DNA of 64,000 nt from a virus. The stretch is from positions 1 through 64,000 of IMG/VR virus record IMGVR_UViG_3300009080_000001, one strand, 5' to 3'. Below the pieces are notes generated by a model. It searched no databases. It was not told the origin of the DNA and worked only from the letters and a program-made list of their open reading frames with translations. Both the position numbers and the translations under genes were made by a program. Positions 2,519 to 54,064 of this stretch are shown here, piece after piece (the first letter of the stretch is position 1; every line of letters begins with the position of its first letter).

Positions 2519-3784
2519 TTAAGCTACTTTGATGTTGATAAGAACACAAAGAGATGCTGGTCTAGCAGTAAATAATGCTTGATCAGTGTAACATCTCATT
2601 TCGATACCATGAGCGTTCTCAAGAAGCTCTAAGTACTCTTCACCATCTGGTCTTTTGAATGTTACTTCTTCAGAACCAATTCTCTTAAGATCTTTCTCAC
2701 AAGCTAAGTAAGAGTAACCTTCTTTTACGAAAGTAGAAGCGATTACTTTGATAGATCCGTTTTGTCCGTGGAACATGATTTCTCTTGATCCATTTTCTTG
2801 TTTAGCTGGAGAATATGAGCTATCATATTGTCTCTTAGCGTCGATTTCAGTTAATAGTGAGTTCCATTGCTTAGGGTTAACATAACAAGAAACTTCTTCT
2901 TCCATTAGACCTTTCTCAACCATTGCGGCGATACCTTCTTCGATTTTACCAAAAGAAAGAACAGCAGCGTTAGTAGTTGCATCAGTTCCAACTTCTACGA
3001 TAGACCCTTGAAAAAGAGGCTCTGCAGAGTTGTTGATTCCAAATAGGCTTGATGTTTCAGTTGCGATTCCGTGAATTCCTAAAAATTCATTTCTTACACC
3101 AGCGTTAGCAGCAGCACCTTTGAAAAAGATAACGTCGTCAGCTTGAATTTCAGCAGCACCTAAGTTACCAGCAGCTTTCTTAAGAGTAACTGATCTGTCA
3201 GCTAAAGAGTAACCTTCAACTTCGTAAGAAGCTACTAAAGAACCTGCAGAGAATACTTCAACTTCTGCATTAGATGTACCATTCCAGATACCTGCAGACC
3301 ATTCAGCTTCTTGAATTGAAACTGCTTCAGATGGAGCACCACCAGTAATATCAGTCTTAACTACACCAATTCCAGATTGTCCGTAGAACATTTGTACTTC
3401 TAATCTGTGGTATACTGATTTAAGCATGTTACCTACCATAAGGTCCATTGCTTTTTCGATTGCTTGCTTGTCAGAACCTGAACGAGATAGAGCACCGATA
3501 GAGATAGCAGATCTTAATACTAATTCTCTAGCTTTGATTGAAGCTTTTCTCATTTTGAATTCTTTAACGTCGTTAAGTGTAAAAAGAGATCCATCCTCTC
3601 CACCATAAGTAAATCCTGATTCTAAAGATAGGATAACTGGTTCATTGTAGCTATCTCCTACTTTCTTAGATGTGTCAAATTTTACTGCGTTGTAAAGTTT
3701 AACATGATCAGGTACTAATTGTTGTACTTTGTCAGCGTATCTTTCCTTAAAAAGACCGTTTAGCGTTGATACTTCGTTTGCCAT
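2519..3784 (-). CDS. Major capsid protein
   Basis: 421 aa after scaffold and portal; strong RBS, own promoter motif and terminator; HK97-like C-terminus. Confidence 0.8.
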   Translation of the reverse strand: MANEVSTLNGLFKERYADKVQQLVPDHVKLYNAVKFDTSKKVGDSYNEPVILSLESGFTYGGEDGSLFTLNDVKEFKMRKASIKARELVLRSAISIGALSRSGSDKQAIEKAMDLMVGNMLKSVYHRLEVQMFYGQSGIGVVKTDITGGAPSEAVSIQEAEWSAGIWNGTSNAEVEVFSAGSLVASYEVEGYSLADRSVTLKKAAGNLGAAEIQADDVIFFKGAAANAGVRNEFLGIHGIATETSSLFGINNSAEPLFQGSIVEVGTDATTNAAVLSFGKIEEGIAAMVEKGLMEEEVSCYVNPKQWNSLLTEIDAKRQYDSSYSPAKQENGSREIMFHGQNGSIKVIASTFVKEGYSYLACEKDLKRIGSEEVTFKRPDGEEYLELLENAHGIEMRCYTDQALFTARPASLCVLINIKVA

Positions 3785-3990
3785 TTTATAACTCCTTAAA
3801 AAATAGTTAATTGTGAGAACCGTTGTTGGTTCATGTGTAAAATATTATGATTTTGTCACACTTTTCACTTGACAGGTTTGGTCTTAATTGGTATTCTCTA
3901 CTACAGAGCCTCAATCCGTTTCAGGGTATGAAGATGGTTCAAAAAGCCGACATAAGCCTACTATTGTAAGCTAGAGGGACTTCCTCGTTA

Positions 3991-4066: not shown

Positions 4067-5044
4067 TTACATACCCATAAAATCTTTCAAACTCATCTTT
4101 TTAGACGGTTTTTCTTCTTTAGATTCAGGTACAGACCCTTGTTTGATGTTATTTATAGTCTTAACTTGCTTCTGAGCTTGTTGTACTCTTTCTTCTCTTA
4201 AGTTATTAAGAATATCGTCACCTAATAGTGCTTTTAGAGCAGATGTAGACTTTAAAGATCCTGCAATAGTTCTGAACTTATTTTGAAGCTCTTGTTTAAC
4301 AGTCGGAAGTACATCCTTAGCTGTAACATCTTCCCATCCGTTCTGCATAGCCCATAGCATATTATCTGCTACCATAGCAATTACTTCTGGATTAGCTGGA
4401 AGTTCTTTATCACCTTCTAGAGCACCTAAAATATCAGTTTCGATCTCTTTCTCAACTTTAGCCATTTCAGCGTTTCTTGTTCTTTCTTCAGCATCTTTCT
4501 TAAGTCTTTCGTTCTCTTCTCTCATCTTTTGGATTTCAGAAGCTCTTTGCTCTTGTTCAATTTGCTCTGGAGATTTAGCATTTTGAGCTAAATGATTCTC
4601 AATTACTTGAGCTGCAAATGTAACAGGGTCAATATCTAACTCTTGTAATACTGCTGCTGTATCTGATTTAAGACGCTCAATATCGCCTTTATGAGCTTTC
4701 TGAGACTCTGCTAAGTGTTGCATAGCCTGACGACCAGCTAAAGCCATTTGAAGCTCTTTCTGAAGTCCTTCTTCATCATTAAGGTCAATCTGACGCTTAT
4801 ACTCTTTACCGTTTACTTTAAGTGTAAACTCTCTAAGCATTTCTTTAACTTCTTCTTCAGAAGCACCTTCTTCAATTGCTTGTTCTACTTCAGCTTTTAA
4901 CTCTTCTTCAGTTTCAGCTTGAACACCTTCTTCACTAGAAGCTTCTATACTTGATTCTTCTGATGCTTGAATTTCTTCTGATTGATTTTCTTCTGTAGAT
5001 ACTTCTTCTTCAACAGATTCCACTGCTGCGATTTCTTCACTCAT
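4067..5044 (-). CDS. Capsid scaffolding protein
   Basis: Acidic N-terminus, helical/coiled-coil, LKVNGKE motif, between portal and capsid. Confidence 0.7.
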   Translation of the reverse strand: MSEEIAAVESVEEEVSTEENQSEEIQASEESSIEASSEEGVQAETEEELKAEVEQAIEEGASEEEVKEMLREFTLKVNGKEYKRQIDLNDEEGLQKELQMALAGRQAMQHLAESQKAHKGDIERLKSDTAAVLQELDIDPVTFAAQVIENHLAQNAKSPEQIEQEQRASEIQKMREENERLKKDAEERTRNAEMAKVEKEIETDILGALEGDKELPANPEVIAMVADNMLWAMQNGWEDVTAKDVLPTVKQELQNKFRTIAGSLKSTSALKALLGDDILNNLREERVQQAQKQVKTINNIKQGSVPESKEEKPSKKMSLKDFMGM

Positions 5045-11633: not shown

Positions 11634-11706
11634 AATATACTGAATAATATTTTATTTGTCAAATACTATTTTAATCCTTGACAGTACTTGTACTAACTGT
11701 TATCTT
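11634..11706. promoter_or_regulatory. Divergent sigma70-type promoters
   Basis: Minus: TTGACA (11662-57)-17-TATATT. Plus: TTGACA (11678-83)-17-TATCTT with ATG at 11712 (likely leaderless). Confidence 0.7.
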
Positions 11707-12720: not shown

Positions 12721-12997
12721 TAGATATCCAATAGTTAGGCGTAATAATCTCAACGTAATGATAATTAGAACAGAAGGAAATGGTGACAATTTGGACTTTA
12801 TAAGCTTTGTAGAAACTGACGATGGTATTAAATATGAAGATACAAGTGGTCATAGAATGCCTTTAAAGGATATAATTATAGAATCTAATAGCGGAACTTT
12901 TGGCCTAGAGAGCGTTGTTAAAACTAGACTAGCAGAAAAAATGTGCAAGGTACTAGGGGAAACTGAGAACTATTATATTATTAAGGGAGAGCAGTAG
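12707..12997 (+). CDS. TRLARK-box protein
   Basis: VVKTRLAEKMCK at C-terminus. Confidence 0.7.
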   Translation: MATSNRYPIVRRNNLNVMIIRTEGNGDNLDFISFVETDDGIKYEDTSGHRMPLKDIIIESNSGTFGLESVVKTRLAEKMCKVLGETENYYIIKGEQ

Positions 12998-13203
12998 TGG
13001 GAATGGGAACTATAAGAGTACCTAGAGATGAAGAAATACCTATATACAAAACGGTAAATGATACTAGGCTCGCTCGTAAAATGTTCCCGGATTTTACTGA
13101 TAATAAAGATGGAACCTTAAGAATAATAACTGGTTACGGACCGGAGCCTGTTATAGTAGGTTCAGAAAAGGGATTTACATATATAGGAACGCCAAAAAAA
13201 TGA
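12997..13203 (+). CDS. TRLARK-box protein with capsid-like peptide
   Basis: VNDTRLARKMFPD followed by EPVIVGSEKGFTYIG. Confidence 0.75.
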   Translation: MGMGTIRVPRDEEIPIYKTVNDTRLARKMFPDFTDNKDGTLRIITGYGPEPVIVGSEKGFTYIGTPKK

Positions 13204-14248: not shown

Positions 14249-15055
14249 ATGATAAAAAGAGATATAAATATGTTAGAGTATCTATGTAAAGTTAGCCCAA
14301 AAGAATTTACAAGAAAAACGAGAGAAAGCGGGCCTATAAGAACATATTTCTACAGAAAATGGATATATTCTCCGATGGGAGGTTTCGAAACATGGGACAC
14401 AATGGCAGAAGTTAATCTAGAAAAATATAAAGTTACATACTATAACGGATGGGGGAAGAGGTAAATATGAAAAAATTTAAAGTATTATGGGAAGAGAGAG
14501 TTGAGAAATCTGTGTGGATTGAAGCCTCCTCTGAAAAAGATGCTGTAGAAAAACACAATGAAGGCGAATATAGTAATGACTCAGTAAATGAAGAGTGGTT
14601 AGGATTCGACGACTCTTACGTTGTAGATAGCAAGGATATAGAATAATGTTCGACTATATGGTAAAAGTACTGCCGAACGGTAACTTATTAGTGCGTGACA
14701 GCCATTCTAAGACATCCGAGGCTATTAAGGCAAGTGAGATATCGGATTATTTCCAAAAGGCTTTAAAAGAGCAATTAGAGGCTGAGAAAGAGAATGACCA
14801 GAAACATAAGGATGTTCGAGAGGGAGCCTTTAAATTATGAAAAGAATAGAAAAAATGATGACATACAGGAATGATCCGTATTCTAATAATATAATAGAAG
14901 ACGATTATCAGTTAGTAGGTATAGATTATATAGTCTCTGCTTGGAATTGGGACCACTCTAAATCAAACGACGAATATTACTGTGTAAAATTAGCTCATTT
15001 TGGAAGTATTGTCCACATAAAGAAGGAAGACCTAGATAAAAAGGTAAAAAAATGA
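14249..15055 (+). CDS. Four small hypothetical ORFs (14249-14464, 14467-14646, 14646-14840, 14837-15055)
   Basis: Tightly coupled ORFs with RBSs. Confidence 0.55.
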
Positions 15056-15381
15056 ATAAAACATATACAAGAATGCAAAAACAAGTAGTTAACGACACTA
15101 GGTTAGCTAGGAAGATGTATCCAGACTTCACTGATAATGAGGATGGTACTATCACAATTGAGGTTGAAGTAATCTCAGACGGATTCGGGTCTGGTGGTAT
15201 ATTGACTGCTACAGACGTACAAGATGCAATAAATGATATGCTGACCAAAGGCTTTGCTGCGCCATCAGAAATCATAGTAAACCCTAAACAATACGCAGAG
15301 TTACAGAAGTTAATAGATCCAGATGACATGGATATTAAGGTTAGTAACTACTGTCCTGATGACAAGGTATATATAAAATAG
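15052..15381 (+). CDS. TRLARK-box protein with capsid-like fragment
   Basis: N-terminal VNDTRLARKMYPD; IVNPKQYAELQKLID. Confidence 0.75.
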   Translation: MNKTYTRMQKQVVNDTRLARKMYPDFTDNEDGTITIEVEVISDGFGSGGILTATDVQDAINDMLTKGFAAPSEIIVNPKQYAELQKLIDPDDMDIKVSNYCPDDKVYIK

Positions 15382-28985: not shown

Positions 28986-29321
28986 ATGGACGATATTAAA
29001 GTAGGAGATTATTTTAAAGACAGTAGTGGGTGTTATTTTGAAATAGCAGGGTATTTCAAAGATAGCGAGGATAAAAATATATACGTAATAAAGTTAGATG
29101 ATTATATTGAAGGGGTTCCTTTAAAAAGACTTATTTCAGACTACGGATTTAAAAAACAAATTAATGCTCTTAATTTAGACGATAAATATAGCTATCATTA
29201 TATGCCAAAACAATCAGATTGGACATTAGCATATGACAAAGTTAAAGATACAAGACTAGCAAGGAAAATGTGTAAGAAAATATACAAAGAAGAGGACGGT
29301 TGGTTATATGTCAAAATTTAA
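28986..29321 (+). CDS. TRLARK-box protein
   Basis: IKVGD...VKDTRLARKMCK..EDGWLYV. Confidence 0.75.
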   Translation: MDDIKVGDYFKDSSGCYFEIAGYFKDSEDKNIYVIKLDDYIEGVPLKRLISDYGFKKQINALNLDDKYSYHYMPKQSDWTLAYDKVKDTRLARKMCKKIYKEEDGWLYVKI

Positions 29322-29607
29322 AGTTGGTGATGTAGTTACTTTACGAAAAGATAGTAAATATTACAAACATAACGATTTGTATGCTCATATATGTGATAAA
29401 GGATCTGGTACTATACTCGAAATCTATGACGATTATACCACACACATTTATGGGATAAAATGGAATAGTATGCCAGAAGGTGAACATGGGTATACTGACT
29501 GTTCGTTAAGAGAAGTTGATATAGAAATAAAATATAAATATACAAGACTAGCAGAGAAAGTCTACCCAAAAGGATATAAAGATGGTAAATGGTGGGTGTT
29601 ATGTTAA
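29308..29607 (+). CDS. TRLARK-box protein
   Basis: FKVGD...YKYTRLAEKVYPKG. Confidence 0.75.
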   Translation: MSKFKVGDVVTLRKDSKYYKHNDLYAHICDKGSGTILEIYDDYTTHIYGIKWNSMPEGEHGYTDCSLREVDIEIKYKYTRLAEKVYPKGYKDGKWWVLC

Positions 29608-31754: not shown

Positions 31755-32099
31755 TTGGAGAATAGTGTGGAAGAAGTAAGTAGATTTAAAGTTGGTGATA
31801 TTGTTATTGGTAACGAGGATAATCACTACGGTATTACGAATAGAGAGAATATATGTAAGGTTGTTGGGTTTATTTCAGAAAATGAATATCCTCCGATAAA
31901 TACACAAGGTACGGTTGAAGTCGGCGACGATATGTACGTTGAAGTTATTGAATCTAAAGATTTCGAATATGATGTTGGAAAAATATTTCCAGTAGATTCT
32001 AGTAGGTTCAAACATTGTAGAGTAGTTAACACAAGGTTAGCAAAGAAGTTATATCCAAAAGCTAATGAGTCAGAAGATGGGAAGTGGTTATATGTCTAA
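31755..32099 (+). CDS. TRLARK-box protein
   Basis: FKVGD...VNTRLAKKLYP. Confidence 0.75.
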   Translation: MENSVEEVSRFKVGDIVIGNEDNHYGITNRENICKVVGFISENEYPPINTQGTVEVGDDMYVEVIESKDFEYDVGKIFPVDSSRFKHCRVVNTRLAKKLYPKANESEDGKWLYV

Positions 32100-32457
32100 G
32101 TTTAAAGTTGGTGATATCGTTACTAGACATGGTTGGGTGTTAGAAATAGCATGTGTTTCAAATTGGGAAGATGCTAAATCTGATGCTAAAGATTGGTATG
32201 TAGCTAGAATTTTAAGTGGTAATGCTAGTTTAGGAAATGTTATTGCTGAAGAATTTGAAGGGTACTTTAGAGATAATATCAATATTGAAAGTATAATGGA
32301 ATCGTTGAATAAATATCCTGTTGGTGTTAAATTCAATTGGGGATTTGAACATTCTTTTGAATCAGTAGAGCCAATTAAAAAAACAAGATTAGCATTGAAA
32401 GTGATACCAAAAGAAGATATATTAAAAGAAACTGAGGAATGGTTATGGGTAAAATAA
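32092..32457 (+). CDS. TRLARK-box protein
   Basis: FKVGD...KKTRLALKVIP. Confidence 0.7.
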   Translation: MSKFKVGDIVTRHGWVLEIACVSNWEDAKSDAKDWYVARILSGNASLGNVIAEEFEGYFRDNINIESIMESLNKYPVGVKFNWGFEHSFESVEPIKKTRLALKVIPKEDILKETEEWLWVK

Positions 32458-41582: not shown

Positions 41583-43955
41583 GTGAAAGAACGTAAACTA
41601 GTAATAGTTGATAATATAAAGAAATTAGCAGAAGCTATAACACATATAAATACTTACGATATATTAGCATACGATATAGAAACTACTGGACTTATTCCTA
41701 CTAAGGAAAAGGTTATAGGGTTCTCAGTATGCGGTAAAGTAGGTGAAGCATATTATATTCCACATTTAACTTGGGATACTACCAAAAATAAACTAGTCGA
41801 AGTATTCAGCTTCAGTAAAATATCCTCCATTTTAAATTCGTTAAAAGGTAAAGAGTTACTGATGTGGAACGGTAGTTTCGACGTTAGATTCACCAGAGAT
41901 TATTTCGATATAGACCTTACAGAAGAATTATTCGCAGATATTATGTTAATGAAACATACAGTAGAAGAAGAGGGTCAATTTAGCTTAAAAGGCTGTGCAA
42001 TCCAGTACCAAGAAGAGATTGGACTAGATGTAGCAGAAGACGCTAACAAAGAGCAGATAGCCTTAAAAGAGAACGTAGCTAAGAATGGCGGTACAACTAC
42101 TAGAGCTAAGTACGAGATGTATAAGGCTGATCTAGACGTTATGGGTGTGTATGCCGCAGCCGATGCAGACCTTACATTAAGACTTGCAAACCTATTCAGA
42201 GAAAAGCTTGAAAAAGAGGAATTAGAGGACTTCTTTTATGATGAAGAAGTTATGCCTTTATATAAGTATGTAACAATGACAATGGAATCTAATCCAGTAC
42301 AATTAGATATTGATAAACTTAAATACTACAAACATAAGATAGAGCAAGATATAGTTAAATTACATGATGCTATTGTTGCAGACTTATTAACAAGCGTTAA
42401 AGTACAAGCATGGTTAGAAGAAGTAGCTAAGACTAAATATCCGCCAAAACCTACTGGAAACTACGCTCAAAGAGTGGTAGAGAAATTCGGACTAGATTTA
42501 CCAAAATCAGCATCAGGGAAGTACAGTATTTCCAGAAAGAATGTTGAGAAATTACCAGATAGTGACGCTAAAAGCTTCTTATTAAAAGAGAGTAATATAG
42601 AGCCGGAATTTAAGGTAAAAGATACAAGGTTAGCACGTAAGATGTATCCGGGCTGTGTAGAGAAAGATGGTTGGTTAGTACCTGCTCAAGATATGTCAAG
42701 TATTTCAGTTGAATTATGGGAAGAACATAATGGTGGTAAAATCAATATCTCATCTAAAAAGCAAATGGGTGAAATAGTATTTAATTACATGAAAGTTAAG
42801 CCTTTAACTAAGACCTTAAAAGGTGCGCCACAATTTAACGATGCTTTAATTCAATATTTAGCTGATAATCAGTTTTCTTGGGCTAATGACCTTAGTGACT
42901 ACAATAAGCTAATTAAGATCAAGTCAGCATATATCGATAGATTCTTGGATAATAACCAAGATGGTAATTATTACTTTTATTACAAACAACATGGAACATT
43001 ATCAGGACGATATAGTTCTGACGCACAGCAGCTACCAAGACCTAAAGAAGATGGAGAACTATCACCATTAGTACTTGAATATAACAATGCTATTAGGTCG
43101 TTCTTTGTCGCTGGTGAAGGTCGTAAGTTTATTGATGCCGATTATGAGTCGTTAGAGCCACATGTATTTGCACATGTATCAGGTGATGATGGGTTGAGAA
43201 ATATCTTCCGTAAAGGTCATGATTTTTATAGTACTATTGCTATTCAAACAGAGAAGCTTGGGGAATTTAGTGCGGATAAGAAGTCCGAAAGTTACCTTGG
43301 GAAATTAAACAAACCATTACGCCAGAAGGCTAAGGCTTATAGTCTAGGCGTTCCATATGGCATGACACCTTATGCCCTAGCTAAGACATTAGAAGTGGAT
43401 GAGAAGGAAGCTAAGAAGCTATATGATGGGTATTTAGACGGGTTTCCAGAGCTTAAGAAGTGGATGCAGAAGAGTAAGAGAGATGCACAGTACAAAGGAT
43501 TCGTTAAGACGCAAACTGGACGTATTAGGCACTTAGATAGGGTTAAAGAGCTACATGCTGAACATGGTGAGAAATTACTTAATTTTAAATACCGTAAAAA
43601 GCTTGAAAAACAAGTAGCTAAGAAACTTGGTGGATTTGAAGCATCTAAAGAAGTTAAAGGTATGTACCTTGATTATAAGAATGGTATAAATAATAGCCGC
43701 AACTTTCAGATTCAAGGATTATCGGCTAGTATTGTAAATAAATCCATGATACTGATTATGCAGGATTTTAGGGACGAGAATATAGACGGTTACGTATGTG
43801 CAACAGTACATGATCAGATTATTGTTAACGTATCTGATTTAGATCTTGACAGAGCTATAGAAATAGTGCAATATAGAATGACAACGGTTGTTGAGCTATC
43901 AGTTGATCTGAAAGCTCCGCCAGAAATTAGCGATAATTTTAGAGATGGACATTAA
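41583..43955 (+). CDS. polA: DNA polymerase family A with 3'-5' exonuclease and internal TRLARK box
   Basis: DIETTG exo I; SGRYSS; DADYESLE motif A; KAKAYSLGVPYG motif B; HDQ motif C. Confidence 0.95.
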   Translation: MKERKLVIVDNIKKLAEAITHINTYDILAYDIETTGLIPTKEKVIGFSVCGKVGEAYYIPHLTWDTTKNKLVEVFSFSKISSILNSLKGKELLMWNGSFDVRFTRDYFDIDLTEELFADIMLMKHTVEEEGQFSLKGCAIQYQEEIGLDVAEDANKEQIALKENVAKNGGTTTRAKYEMYKADLDVMGVYAAADADLTLRLANLFREKLEKEELEDFFYDEEVMPLYKYVTMTMESNPVQLDIDKLKYYKHKIEQDIVKLHDAIVADLLTSVKVQAWLEEVAKTKYPPKPTGNYAQRVVEKFGLDLPKSASGKYSISRKNVEKLPDSDAKSFLLKESNIEPEFKVKDTRLARKMYPGCVEKDGWLVPAQDMSSISVELWEEHNGGKINISSKKQMGEIVFNYMKVKPLTKTLKGAPQFNDALIQYLADNQFSWANDLSDYNKLIKIKSAYIDRFLDNNQDGNYYFYYKQHGTLSGRYSSDAQQLPRPKEDGELSPLVLEYNNAIRSFFVAGEGRKFIDADYESLEPHVFAHVSGDDGLRNIFRKGHDFYSTIAIQTEKLGEFSADKKSESYLGKLNKPLRQKAKAYSLGVPYGMTPYALAKTLEVDEKEAKKLYDGYLDGFPELKKWMQKSKRDAQYKGFVKTQTGRIRHLDRVKELHAEHGEKLLNFKYRKKLEKQVAKKLGGFEASKEVKGMYLDYKNGINNSRNFQIQGLSASIVNKSMILIMQDFRDENIDGYVCATVHDQIIVNVSDLDLDRAIEIVQYRMTTVVELSVDLKAPPEISDNFRDGH

Positions 43956-43956
43956 T

Positions 43957-44511
43957 ATGGGTAAATTTTCAAGAAAAGAACAATGGAGTCTTATAGAGAA
44001 AGGTAAAAAAGGTTGTTCTGTTTGTGGTGATATTTTAGAATTAGATTGTTTTAGAAAAACTGGAAAAGTAAATAAACAAGGAATTGTAGGTTACAGAAGC
44101 AATTGCAGGTACTGTAAACACGTAGATCAGATGAGTAGAAAAGGACACAATCCTAGGAATAAAGATGATTTTTGGCATAGACATGGACTAAGAGATGAAG
44201 GGTTCATAGATAAAGCAGGAAAAGCAAGGAACTACGAAAGAGATAGAGTTAATTTTATAAGGAGAGTTTATAATGTTGACTTTAAAGAAGCTTTAGATTT
44301 ACATAAAAGATCACTACATGATACTTGTGAGATATGTGGAAAAGGGTTTGAAGACAACGGTAAAGCTCTAGCTGTAGATCACTGTCACAGTAACGGGCAT
44401 GTTAGAGGTATATTATGTGAAGTATGTAATAAAGGATTAGGACACTTTAAAGATAACGTAGATGTTATGAAAAATGCTATCAAATATTTAGAAGAAAAAA
44501 GGGAGAAATAA
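43957..44511 (+). CDS. Endonuclease VII-like HNH nuclease
   Basis: CEICG..LAVDHCH..VRGILCEVCNKGLG. Confidence 0.85.
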   Translation: MGKFSRKEQWSLIEKGKKGCSVCGDILELDCFRKTGKVNKQGIVGYRSNCRYCKHVDQMSRKGHNPRNKDDFWHRHGLRDEGFIDKAGKARNYERDRVNFIRRVYNVDFKEALDLHKRSLHDTCEICGKGFEDNGKALAVDHCHSNGHVRGILCEVCNKGLGHFKDNVDVMKNAIKYLEEKREK

Positions 44512-48112: not shown

Positions 48113-48303
48113 TATGTTATTGTCTATACGGGACGATATCTATACTTACAGTAATTGTCCCGAAGAAGAAATAGATAAATTAGCCAACATTATACTTAAA
48201 AATATCGAGGATTATGGGATGAAACCTCCCGGAAGATGGTCCTCAGTACTAAGAGGGAATACTGCTAAAAGAGAGATAGCGAGATGTTCGTGGGAGGATG
48301 AAG

Positions 48304-48870
48304 ATGAGTAAAGATACTTTTAAAGAAAACTTGGAAATGTTCCACTCTAGTAATATACATATACCTTCAAGAAGTATATTATTATCTGGAGAAATTACAG
48401 TAGAAAAAAGAGATGAGTTTCTAAAGAATATATTAACACTTGATGAAAAGGGTCACGATATTATAGTATACCTATCTAGTGAAGGTGGTTACACAGATCA
48501 AGGTAAGTCGATATATGACTTGATTAAAACTAGAGATTCTAATATAAAAGGTATAGTACTAGATGAAGCTAGTTCAAGTGCAAGTTTTATACTCCAAGCT
48601 TGTGACGAAAGGATTATGTTTCCAAATAGTTACTTAATGGTACATATTGGAGAAGAGGCTACAGGTGGACATCCTAACACTAAGAAAGCTTGGGATAAGA
48701 AGTATGAAGAAGATACAAAGATAATGGAAGATATGTATTTAAAGAGGATTAAAGAAAAAAAACCAAGATATACAAGAAAACAGTTGCAAAACATGTTAAC
48801 TTTTGATACTATCTTGAATCCTAAGAAAGCAATTGAGCTTGGATTAGCAGATAAGGTATATGGTGATTAA
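48304..48870 (+). CDS. ClpP-like protease
   Basis: LSSEGG, ASSSAS (Ser), LMVH (His), AIELGLAD. Confidence 0.85.
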   Translation: MSKDTFKENLEMFHSSNIHIPSRSILLSGEITVEKRDEFLKNILTLDEKGHDIIVYLSSEGGYTDQGKSIYDLIKTRDSNIKGIVLDEASSSASFILQACDERIMFPNSYLMVHIGEEATGGHPNTKKAWDKKYEEDTKIMEDMYLKRIKEKKPRYTRKQLQNMLTFDTILNPKKAIELGLADKVYGD

Positions 48871-53018: not shown

Positions 53019-53243
53019 ATGATCGGTTGGAAAAACGTAAAAGATACAAGATTAGCTAGAAAGATGTTCCCTGACTTTAAAGAGTCCGAAAAAGACGGGT
53101 ATATTATGATCCCAGAACCTATAGATTTAACTAATACTACGTTTGCTGAAAGAGCACATATAGCTGAACAATTGTTACAATACGGACTTATTACTACAAA
53201 AGAAGAATATTTAAAAATAATTGATAATATCCAACAAAAGTAG
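53019..53243 (+). CDS. TRLARK-box protein with portal-like fragment
   Basis: N-terminal VKDTRLARKMFPDF; AERAHIAEQLLQYGLI. Confidence 0.75.
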   Translation: MIGWKNVKDTRLARKMFPDFKESEKDGYIMIPEPIDLTNTTFAERAHIAEQLLQYGLITTKEEYLKIIDNIQQK

Positions 53244-53299: not shown

Positions 53300-54064
53300 A
53301 TGAAGAAACTACTTTTAGCAATTATGCTACTACCAACACTGGCATTCGCCAATCTAAACACAATCAAACTTACTGATAAAAACACTATCAGTTTCAACGA
53401 ACAATTCAATGCAATGACTGTTGCAGCAAAACAAGCACAATTATTCGAATTAGCATCTAGTTCACAAGAAAAGGACTTATATATAGTTATGTATACTCCC
53501 GGTGGCTCAGTATCTGCTGGAGCTTTATTTATCGATACAGCAAGAGCATTAGGTAAGAACATTCACACAATCACTATTTTCAGCGCATCTATGGGCTACC
53601 ACACCGTTCAAGGACTTGGCAAGAGGTATATTCTACCATCTGGGGTTCTAATGTCTCACAGAGCTTATGTAAGCGGATTACAGGGTCAATTTCCGGGTGA
53701 ACTAAATCAAAGAGTTGAGATGCTTATGAAGTCTACTGAAGACCTTGATAAGATTGCTGCTGCTAGAGTTGGTTTAAGTCTTAAGGAATACAAATCTACT
53801 ATTCACGATGAACTATGGTTAACTGGTGCTGATGCTGTTAAAAGAGGTCATGCTGATGAAGTTGTACAAGCTATCTGTGGAGAAAGTCTAAGTGGATTAT
53901 ACGAGAAAGTATTTAACACATTCTTTGGACCAGTTATTGTTGAATTTGCTAATTGTCCATTAATTGTAGGACCAGTTAATATCAAAGGATCAAACGAAGC
54001 AATTATGGAAGTTAAAAAGAACATCCTAGACGATGTAACTAAAAAGGTTAAAACACTACTATAA
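53300..54064 (+). CDS. ClpP-like protease with signal peptide
   Basis: MKKLLLAIMLLPTLAFA; TPGGSV, SASMG, LMSH; TTGACA at 53245. Confidence 0.8.
   Translation: MKKLLLAIMLLPTLAFANLNTIKLTDKNTISFNEQFNAMTVAAKQAQLFELASSSQEKDLYIVMYTPGGSVSAGALFIDTARALGKNIHTITIFSASMGYHTVQGLGKRYILPSGVLMSHRAYVSGLQGQFPGELNQRVEMLMKSTEDLDKIAAARVGLSLKEYKSTIHDELWLTGADAVKRGHADEVVQAICGESLSGLYEKVFNTFFGPVIVEFANCPLIVGPVNIKGSNEAIMEVKKNILDDVTKKVKTLL

Follow-up and report, generated by a model that had tools for sequence, protein, structure and literature searches.

A small accessory protein of a marine phage carries a conserved piece of the phage's own capsid protein on a shared sequence box

Among the proteins that trigger bacterial immunity, capsid, portal, and terminase are the classic ones (PMC9712102; 10.64898/2026.01.04.697583). 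The capsid sensors described in this literature recognize the folded core of the capsid protein over extended interfaces (10.64898/2026.01.04.697583), and Gol, a short piece of the T4 capsid protein gp23, is enough to activate the Lit protease (PMC9712102). Like the capsid-derived piece of the protein analyzed here (ORF68), Gol is a short N-terminal segment of an HK97-fold capsid protein, one that a host factor recognizes alone (PMC9712102); Gol is, however, part of the capsid protein itself, activates defense and bears no shared tag, whereas ORF68 is the tagged product of a separate gene, and the analogy is one of position only. DSAD1, encoded by a phage, opposes DSR2, which senses a virion protein (the tail tube); as far as the available portion of the source goes, it is a small protein neutralizing a virion-protein sensor, which is the mode proposed below for ORF68 (PMC11087589). 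In that same portion DSAD1 is not described as a copy of its trigger, whereas ORF68 is homologous to part of a presumed trigger, its binding to a sensor being an inference.

Assembly-interfering proteins are known from satellites and prophages, among them Sid of P4 and CpmB of SaPI. Gpi of PLE and Tai are likewise small accessory proteins whose targets are capsid, tail, or packaging proteins (10.1101/2024.04.22.590561; PMC11364771). All four are encoded on the side of the parasite or the host and have not been reported as fragments of their targets, whereas ORF68 belongs to the phage itself. In vertebrates, Fv1 and similar restriction factors are derived from Gag and represent capsid-gene derivatives acting as interfering mimics; like ORF68 they are capsid-derived, unlike ORF68 they are host-owned, far larger, and eukaryotic, and here too only an analogy is meant. 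No case of a phage protein assembled from parts of that phage's virion proteins turned up in domain and structure libraries or in the literature searched, a phrase search of the literature for mimics or decoys of capsid, portal, terminase, or trigger returned nothing on phages, and the passages retrieved from a compendium of 268 anti-defense proteins showed no such class (10.1101/2025.06.06.658234). The architecture is therefore considered new in kind, with its function unproven, and self-mimics of this sort look, as far as such comparisons reach, like something that has not been described for phages.

The DNA analyzed (hereafter the window) is the first 64 kb (64,000 nucleotides) of an 84,758-bp IMG/VR virus record, IMGVR_UViG_3300009080_000001, which has direct terminal repeats and stems from marine metagenomes. 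The stretch is present in 12 marine DNA sequencing runs; the four that were examined hold it as fragmentary contigs identical in sequence to the window, so that no variants are available for an estimate of pN/pS, and no RNA sequencing run holding the stretch is listed. The accessory gene ORF68 (12997-13203, + strand) encodes 68 amino acids from a GTG start, with an in-frame ATG at 13003, and is preceded by AAGGGAG at 12983-12989, 7 nt ahead of the GTG. It shares 1 nt with the stop of the upstream ORF, its end overlaps the ATG of the downstream ORF as ATGA, and there is no competing ORF on the opposite strand. It lies within a run of small genes that diverges from the packaging and capsid block, where the gene order is terminase, portal, acidic scaffold-like protein (4067-5044), and a 421-aa ORF; consensus sigma-70-like sites facing both directions occur at 11634-11706, as pattern matches only. 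Elsewhere in the window, two otherwise different proteins encoded at 29308-29607 (+) and 32065-32457 (+) have the N-terminal sequence MSKFKVGD(V/I)VT in common at 10 of 11 positions, and a protein with an endonuclease VII domain (43945-44511, +; Pfam E 4e-20) is encoded directly after the DNA polymerase gene.

The product of ORF68 is made up of a leader (residues 1-14), a TRLARK box (residues ~15-47; 13039-13137, +) with the family-specific end IITGY, a capsid-like stretch (residues 50-64; 13144-13188, +), and the basic tail TPKK (residues 65-68; 13189-13200, +), the last being common to both the strand-type and the helix-type relatives described below. The box motif, V.DTRLARKMYP....DG.L.I, is matched by residues 20-44 of ORF68 and is found in 27 proteins of the window, that is, in some 27 proteins of this phage; 15 further box matches to ORF68 itself were obtained within its own genome. 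ORF68 and its relatives have no match in Pfam or PHROGs, known defense and anti-defense families included, a profile search of the PDB gave nothing for ORF68, and the ESM Atlas supplied neither a model nor a feature match. Derivation of the box from the capsid N-arm was considered, as blastp alignments ran through the box, and was rejected when the box was compared with the capsid profile (E 0.56, probability 0.1%). In L009, a viral contig whose capsid protein is 91% identical to that of the window, the box of two ORFs (L009:2-466 and L009:725-1009, both -) takes the form DLAKFMYPD.....DGFIYV instead of TRLARKMYPD, and judged from such variants the tag is lineage-specific in flavor. Two ClpP-family protease genes (48298-48870, +, and 53300-54064, +; Pfam CLP_protease E 4e-22 and 5e-19, respectively) sit in the early/replication block, outside the head module, the second of them directly 3' of a gene at 53019 that encodes a box with a portal-crown copy; a link of the mostly C-terminal box to proteolysis is an untested idea.

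The capsid-like stretch at 13144-13188 (+) reads EPVIVGSEKGFTYIG, and its counterpart at 3599-3643 (-) reads EPVILSLESGFTYGG, which corresponds to residues 48-62 of the 421-aa ORF (2519-3784, -). The preliminary description of ORF68 as a box plus a capsid peptide with little else is correct, and the ungapped match at 10 of 15 residues on which it was built was reproduced, with a BLOSUM62 score of 50. Differing codons at identical residues, also part of that description, were found at four of the ten (E, P, I, and T), and the two segments are identical at 31 of 45 nucleotides (69%); the different codons mean that the copy is not a recent DNA duplication, and codons alone do not show maintenance at the protein level. 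Neither EPVI nor GFTY is found at any other place in the six-frame translation of the window. The score of 50 between the post-box tail of ORF68 and the capsid protein is followed by a next best of 29 among the 121 other window proteins, and shuffling the tail 300 times never produced a score as high as 50 against the window proteome (mean 32.8, sd 3.0, maximum 45). In an all-vs-all blastp of the window proteome, the ORF68-capsid pair (23.9 bits, E 0.10) is one among 88 non-box pairs of at least 22 bits; the match alone is therefore suggestive and not decisive.

Identification of the 421-aa ORF as the major capsid protein, of HK97 fold, relies on an AlphaFold2 model with Foldseek and on gene order. 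Its sequence has no match in Pfam, PHROG, or PDB sequences and a single distant tblastn match among deposited phages, so that, in the absence of any curated-family match, the assignment rests on fold and gene order. The model predicted from the single sequence was unusable (pLDDT 34); that predicted from a 74-sequence alignment reached a pLDDT of 79.4 and a pTM of 0.81 with the HK97 elements in canonical order, and Foldseek against the PDB returned the capsids of SU10, VP1, A-1(L), Mic1, and HK97 together with encapsulins, at probability 1.00 and E down to 5.6e-10. The model comprises helices at residues 8-22 and 29-33 (the N-arm, at low confidence), a strand at 46-51, a loop at 52-77, strands at 78-83 and 86-95 (within 78-95), and a long spine helix at 106-137. 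From canonical HK97 topology, residues 46-95 are inferred to form the E-loop hairpin, within which residues 48-62 are predicted to make up the ascending strand, at the E-loop base, and the beginning of the tip; the E-loop location anticipated for the peptide thus holds in a model that matches HK97-fold capsids, and it is this strand that ORF68 copies. Across the 74 capsid proteins, down to 39% identity, P49, L52, E55, and G57 never vary, and E48, V50, and Y60 are present in no fewer than 95%; by this alignment, residues 48-62 are among the most invariant segments of the capsid family.

Homologues were sought by word-indexed and full HMMER searches of 1.84 billion representatives, which recovered a small family whose members all come from metagenomes and are all unannotated. 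Nine clusters (the window's protein, P0002, P0003, P0004, P0007, P0008, P0009, P0015, and P0017) align over their full length and share a layout of leader, box ending in IIxGY, and then (E/D)PVIL(G)xExGFTY; they are referred to as the strand type. Several are nearer to capsids than ORF68 itself, among them P0002, which reads EPVILGLESGFTY and agrees with the window capsid at 12 of 13 residues, and P0007, which reads EPVILSLSEGFTY and agrees at 11 of 13, and in P0009 the resemblance extends to about capsid residue 69. When the profile of the nine members was aligned with that of the 74 capsids, hhalign returned E 6.4e-8 at a probability of 94.7%, placing ORF68 residues 49-68 on capsid residues 47-69. 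P0015, at 90 aa, has a portal-crown-like piece, then the box, then the capsid strand, the first of these being 56% identical over 23 residues to the product of ORF 53019 of the window. A colinear arrangement of P0008 with the capsid (helix, box, strand) was considered and rejected, its N-terminal LFKESY not rising above shuffles (p 0.22).

The three clusters of the helix type (P0005, P0011, and P0016 with P0152) share their leader, box, and basic tail with the strand type, and in place of the strand they hold a copy of the N-arm helix of the capsid, residues 3-30 (3695-3778, -); their piece aligns to capsid residues 3-35 (hhalign E 4e-8 against the 74 capsids) and keeps N9, F12 (L or F in capsids), K13, Y16, and P25. 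Taken over both types, 10 of 11 family tails beat all 200 of their shuffles against the 74 capsids, with Gumbel p values from 3e-4 to 2e-8; the tail of P0008 was marginal (7 of 200 shuffles). In P0010 and P0012, an ORF68-like leader and box are fused to an unrelated beta-rich C-terminal domain of ~65 residues, which is not capsid-like in the shuffle test and has no match in Pfam or PHROG, so the handle accepts other cargo. In its sequences the family thus looks like a constant leader and TRLARK handle with an exchangeable C-terminal cargo that is repeatedly a piece of a virion protein. P0152, of 85 aa, lies on an 80,242-bp JGI contig; P0065, a capsid call of 343 aa that is 90% identical and starts at the equivalent of M78, is listed, as is P0152, with a longest contig of 80,242 bp. 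If the two share a contig, the capsid gene there may be split or miscalled in the very N-terminal part that the small proteins copy. Read in frame, the ribosome-binding region of the window's capsid gene (3785-3802, -) gives FLRSYK directly before M1, members of the ORF68 family have IIxGYK directly before the capsid-like piece, and tblastn carried the P0005 alignment through the FLRSYK region; this likeness may be what is left of a fusion that took in the capsid 5' leader, and with two to three identities in six it may equally be nothing.

In IMG/VR no further loci came up, whether the family alignment, P0152, or a back-translated GFTYxGTPKK pattern served as the query, a scan of JGI metagenomes gave a box-only match and nothing more, and contigs of GTDB genomes held no family locus. 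INPHARED phages yielded no DNA match and no protein match below E 3, and five related viral records had no match to ORF68. In the viral contigs L009 and L024, whose capsids are 91% identical to that of the window, the homologues of ORFs 12707 and 13200 directly adjoin each other, and in L011 (capsid 87% identical) different genes occupy the slot; being absent between the same neighbors in phages with such similar capsids, ORF68 is accessory.

Loss of the EPVI/GFTY residues from homologues would have refuted the proposed correspondence, and no such loss is seen: V52, G59, and Y62 are invariant in all nine strand-type clusters, I53, L54, and F60 are kept in eight, and G55, E57, and T61 in seven. 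Mean pairwise identity among strand-type members is 0.63 for the peptide, 0.58 for the box, 0.47 for the tail, and 0.29 for the leader, and 13 of 15 consensus residues are the same in the family and in the capsids. The earlier proposal that the peptide is maintained at the protein level is hence supported by its being the most conserved segment among homologues, and not by the codon argument on which it had been based. Per-column conservation in the family correlates only weakly and non-significantly with that in capsids (Spearman 0.32, p 0.24, for the strand; 0.33, p 0.09, for the helix). Seven of the nine clusters have G at a position that is S in all 60 capsids at least 63% identical to the window's and G in the 14 more remote ones, and the window peptide agrees with G-type capsids of another clade at 12 of 16 positions as against 10 of 15 for its own capsid; being nearer to the former, it does not closely track its cognate capsid. 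Together with the nucleotide identity of 69%, the G state indicates an old copy kept by selection and not a recent duplication or gene conversion, a conclusion to which the comparisons point without a dN/dS estimate. The flanks shared by both types (IIxGY before and IGTPKK after the piece) fit a single capture of approximately the first 64 capsid codons followed by different internal deletions, and repeated capture of capsid pieces into the same slot is not excluded. By these sequence comparisons, the resemblance of the ORF68 peptide to the capsid, and its homology, are confirmed as real, and it is the homologues that decide the matter.

Two other box proteins of the same genome have, like ORF68, a TRLARK box joined to a piece of a virion protein. 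That encoded at 15052-15381, a box with ~70 further residues, contains a capsid A-domain-like segment (15193-15357, +) resembling capsid residues 273-326; aligned jointly with its homologue P0006, it gave hhalign E 4.7e-5 at a probability of 68% against this part of the capsid, and blastp also recovered the match. The product of 53019-53243 carries the portal-crown copy and is 52% identical to the portal protein over 29 residues (blastp E 1.9e-4). The source segments of these siblings differ from that of ORF68, whose piece is the shortest and whose family has two alternative capsid pieces.

The reading preferred here, at a probability of about 0.4 and without binding, expression, or phenotype data, is that ORF68 is a capsid-derived bait on a shared docking handle, directed at a partner of unassembled capsid protein that is most likely a host capsid sensor. 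The capsid-like piece would present a feature left accessible on capsid protein that has just been made and is not yet assembled, and the bait would occupy a partner that would otherwise meet that protein; the box would dock the complex to a partner common to the other box proteins, or may merely be a folded carrier. Foremost among the candidates for this baited partner is a host immune sensor that detects capsid protein, none having been identified; ORF68, produced ahead of the late proteins, would then serve as a decoy or antagonist that pre-empts sensing. Counter-defense typically involves accessory genes of patchy distribution that lie in early regions. The bait reading is drawn from the capsid homology, the selection on the piece, its age, the modular architecture, the accessory status of the gene, the sibling box proteins, and the papers on sensing cited above. 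Against it, a strand of 13-15 residues out of context may fail to reproduce an extended sensor interface, a faithful epitope could trigger the sensor instead of blocking it, the column conservation of family and capsids correlates only weakly, and the window's peptide does not closely track its cognate capsid.

These same data have to be set against other explanations. A chance resemblance of a short tail to the capsid could appeal to the E of 0.10 for the single pair, and would then have to account for the outcome of the shuffle tests, for profile E-values of 6.4e-8 (strand) and 4e-8 (helix), for homologues such as P0002 (12/13) and P0007 (11/13) that lie nearer to capsids than ORF68 does, and for a second branch with a different capsid segment in the same slot; as an origin of the match chance is, on these comparisons, effectively excluded. 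The homology could instead be genuine and without present meaning, if an ancestral box gene captured approximately the first 64 capsid codons and its descendants kept different leftovers for their own fold or stability, the function residing in the box and having nothing to do with the capsid. Helix and strand pieces in one slot between identical flanks (IIxGY and IGTPKK) suit such a history, which needs only one capture of about capsid residues 2-64 and different internal deletions, and the pairing of the handle with an unrelated C-terminal domain in P0010 and P0012 and the poor tracking of the cognate capsid are in keeping with it. If only generic fold constraint acted on a leftover, however, one would not expect it to remain the best-conserved segment while the leader has drifted to 29% identity, or still to match the capsid consensus at 13 of 15 residues, and the theme recurs in other box proteins with capsid A-domain and portal pieces; we consider an inert relic unlikely, and not to be dismissed.

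A functional alternative places the partner within the virion assembly pathway. The piece would bind a capsid subunit (through a partner strand or the P domain) or, by way of the N-arm, the scaffold, and so cap, delay, redirect, or join procapsid assembly, in the phage's own infection or in that of co-infecting relatives; in a variant of the same idea it would be a targeting signal that loads the small protein into procapsids. Both copied pieces come, in the capsid model, from the N-arm/E-loop region, which in P22, 80alpha, and HK97 makes scaffold and inter-subunit contacts. The copied residues are invariant in capsids down to 39% identity, as an interface would be expected to be, and P0015 joins portal-like and capsid-like pieces in one chain. 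Precedents exist in Gpi (10.1101/2024.04.22.590561) and Tai (PMC11364771), small mobile-element proteins that attach to virion or packaging proteins and prevent assembly. A needed assembly factor should not, however, be absent from phages with 91%-identical capsids, and an inhibitor directed at so invariant a motif would poison the phage's own capsid as well; with no interaction data, a role in assembly is likewise judged improbable while remaining a serious competitor. Returning to the capsid-derived bait, its broadest form would be a toolkit of the phage lineage, in which early accessory proteins each present a small, invariant piece of an own virion protein (E-loop strand, N-arm helix, A-domain, or portal crown) on the common tag, as self-derived decoys that pre-empt or disarm host sensors of capsid, portal, and terminase, with ORF68 as the minimal example and the helix and strand versions answering different sensors. 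This generalization is a possible one that we regard as doubtful.

When homologues are taken into account, even very short matches of early genes to structural genes can prove real. Bacterial sensors commonly detect capsid, portal, and terminase, proteins that are hard for phages to change, and the answers of phages to such sensing, beyond point mutations, are largely an open matter. If the bait reading is true, these very small genes, in which the phage's capsid segments least free to change are copied onto a common handle, would constitute a new counter-strategy; if the partner is instead the assembly machinery, they would represent a new way to regulate or sabotage capsid assembly. Either way, the family would offer a testable handle, a 13-residue motif with a clear mutational control.
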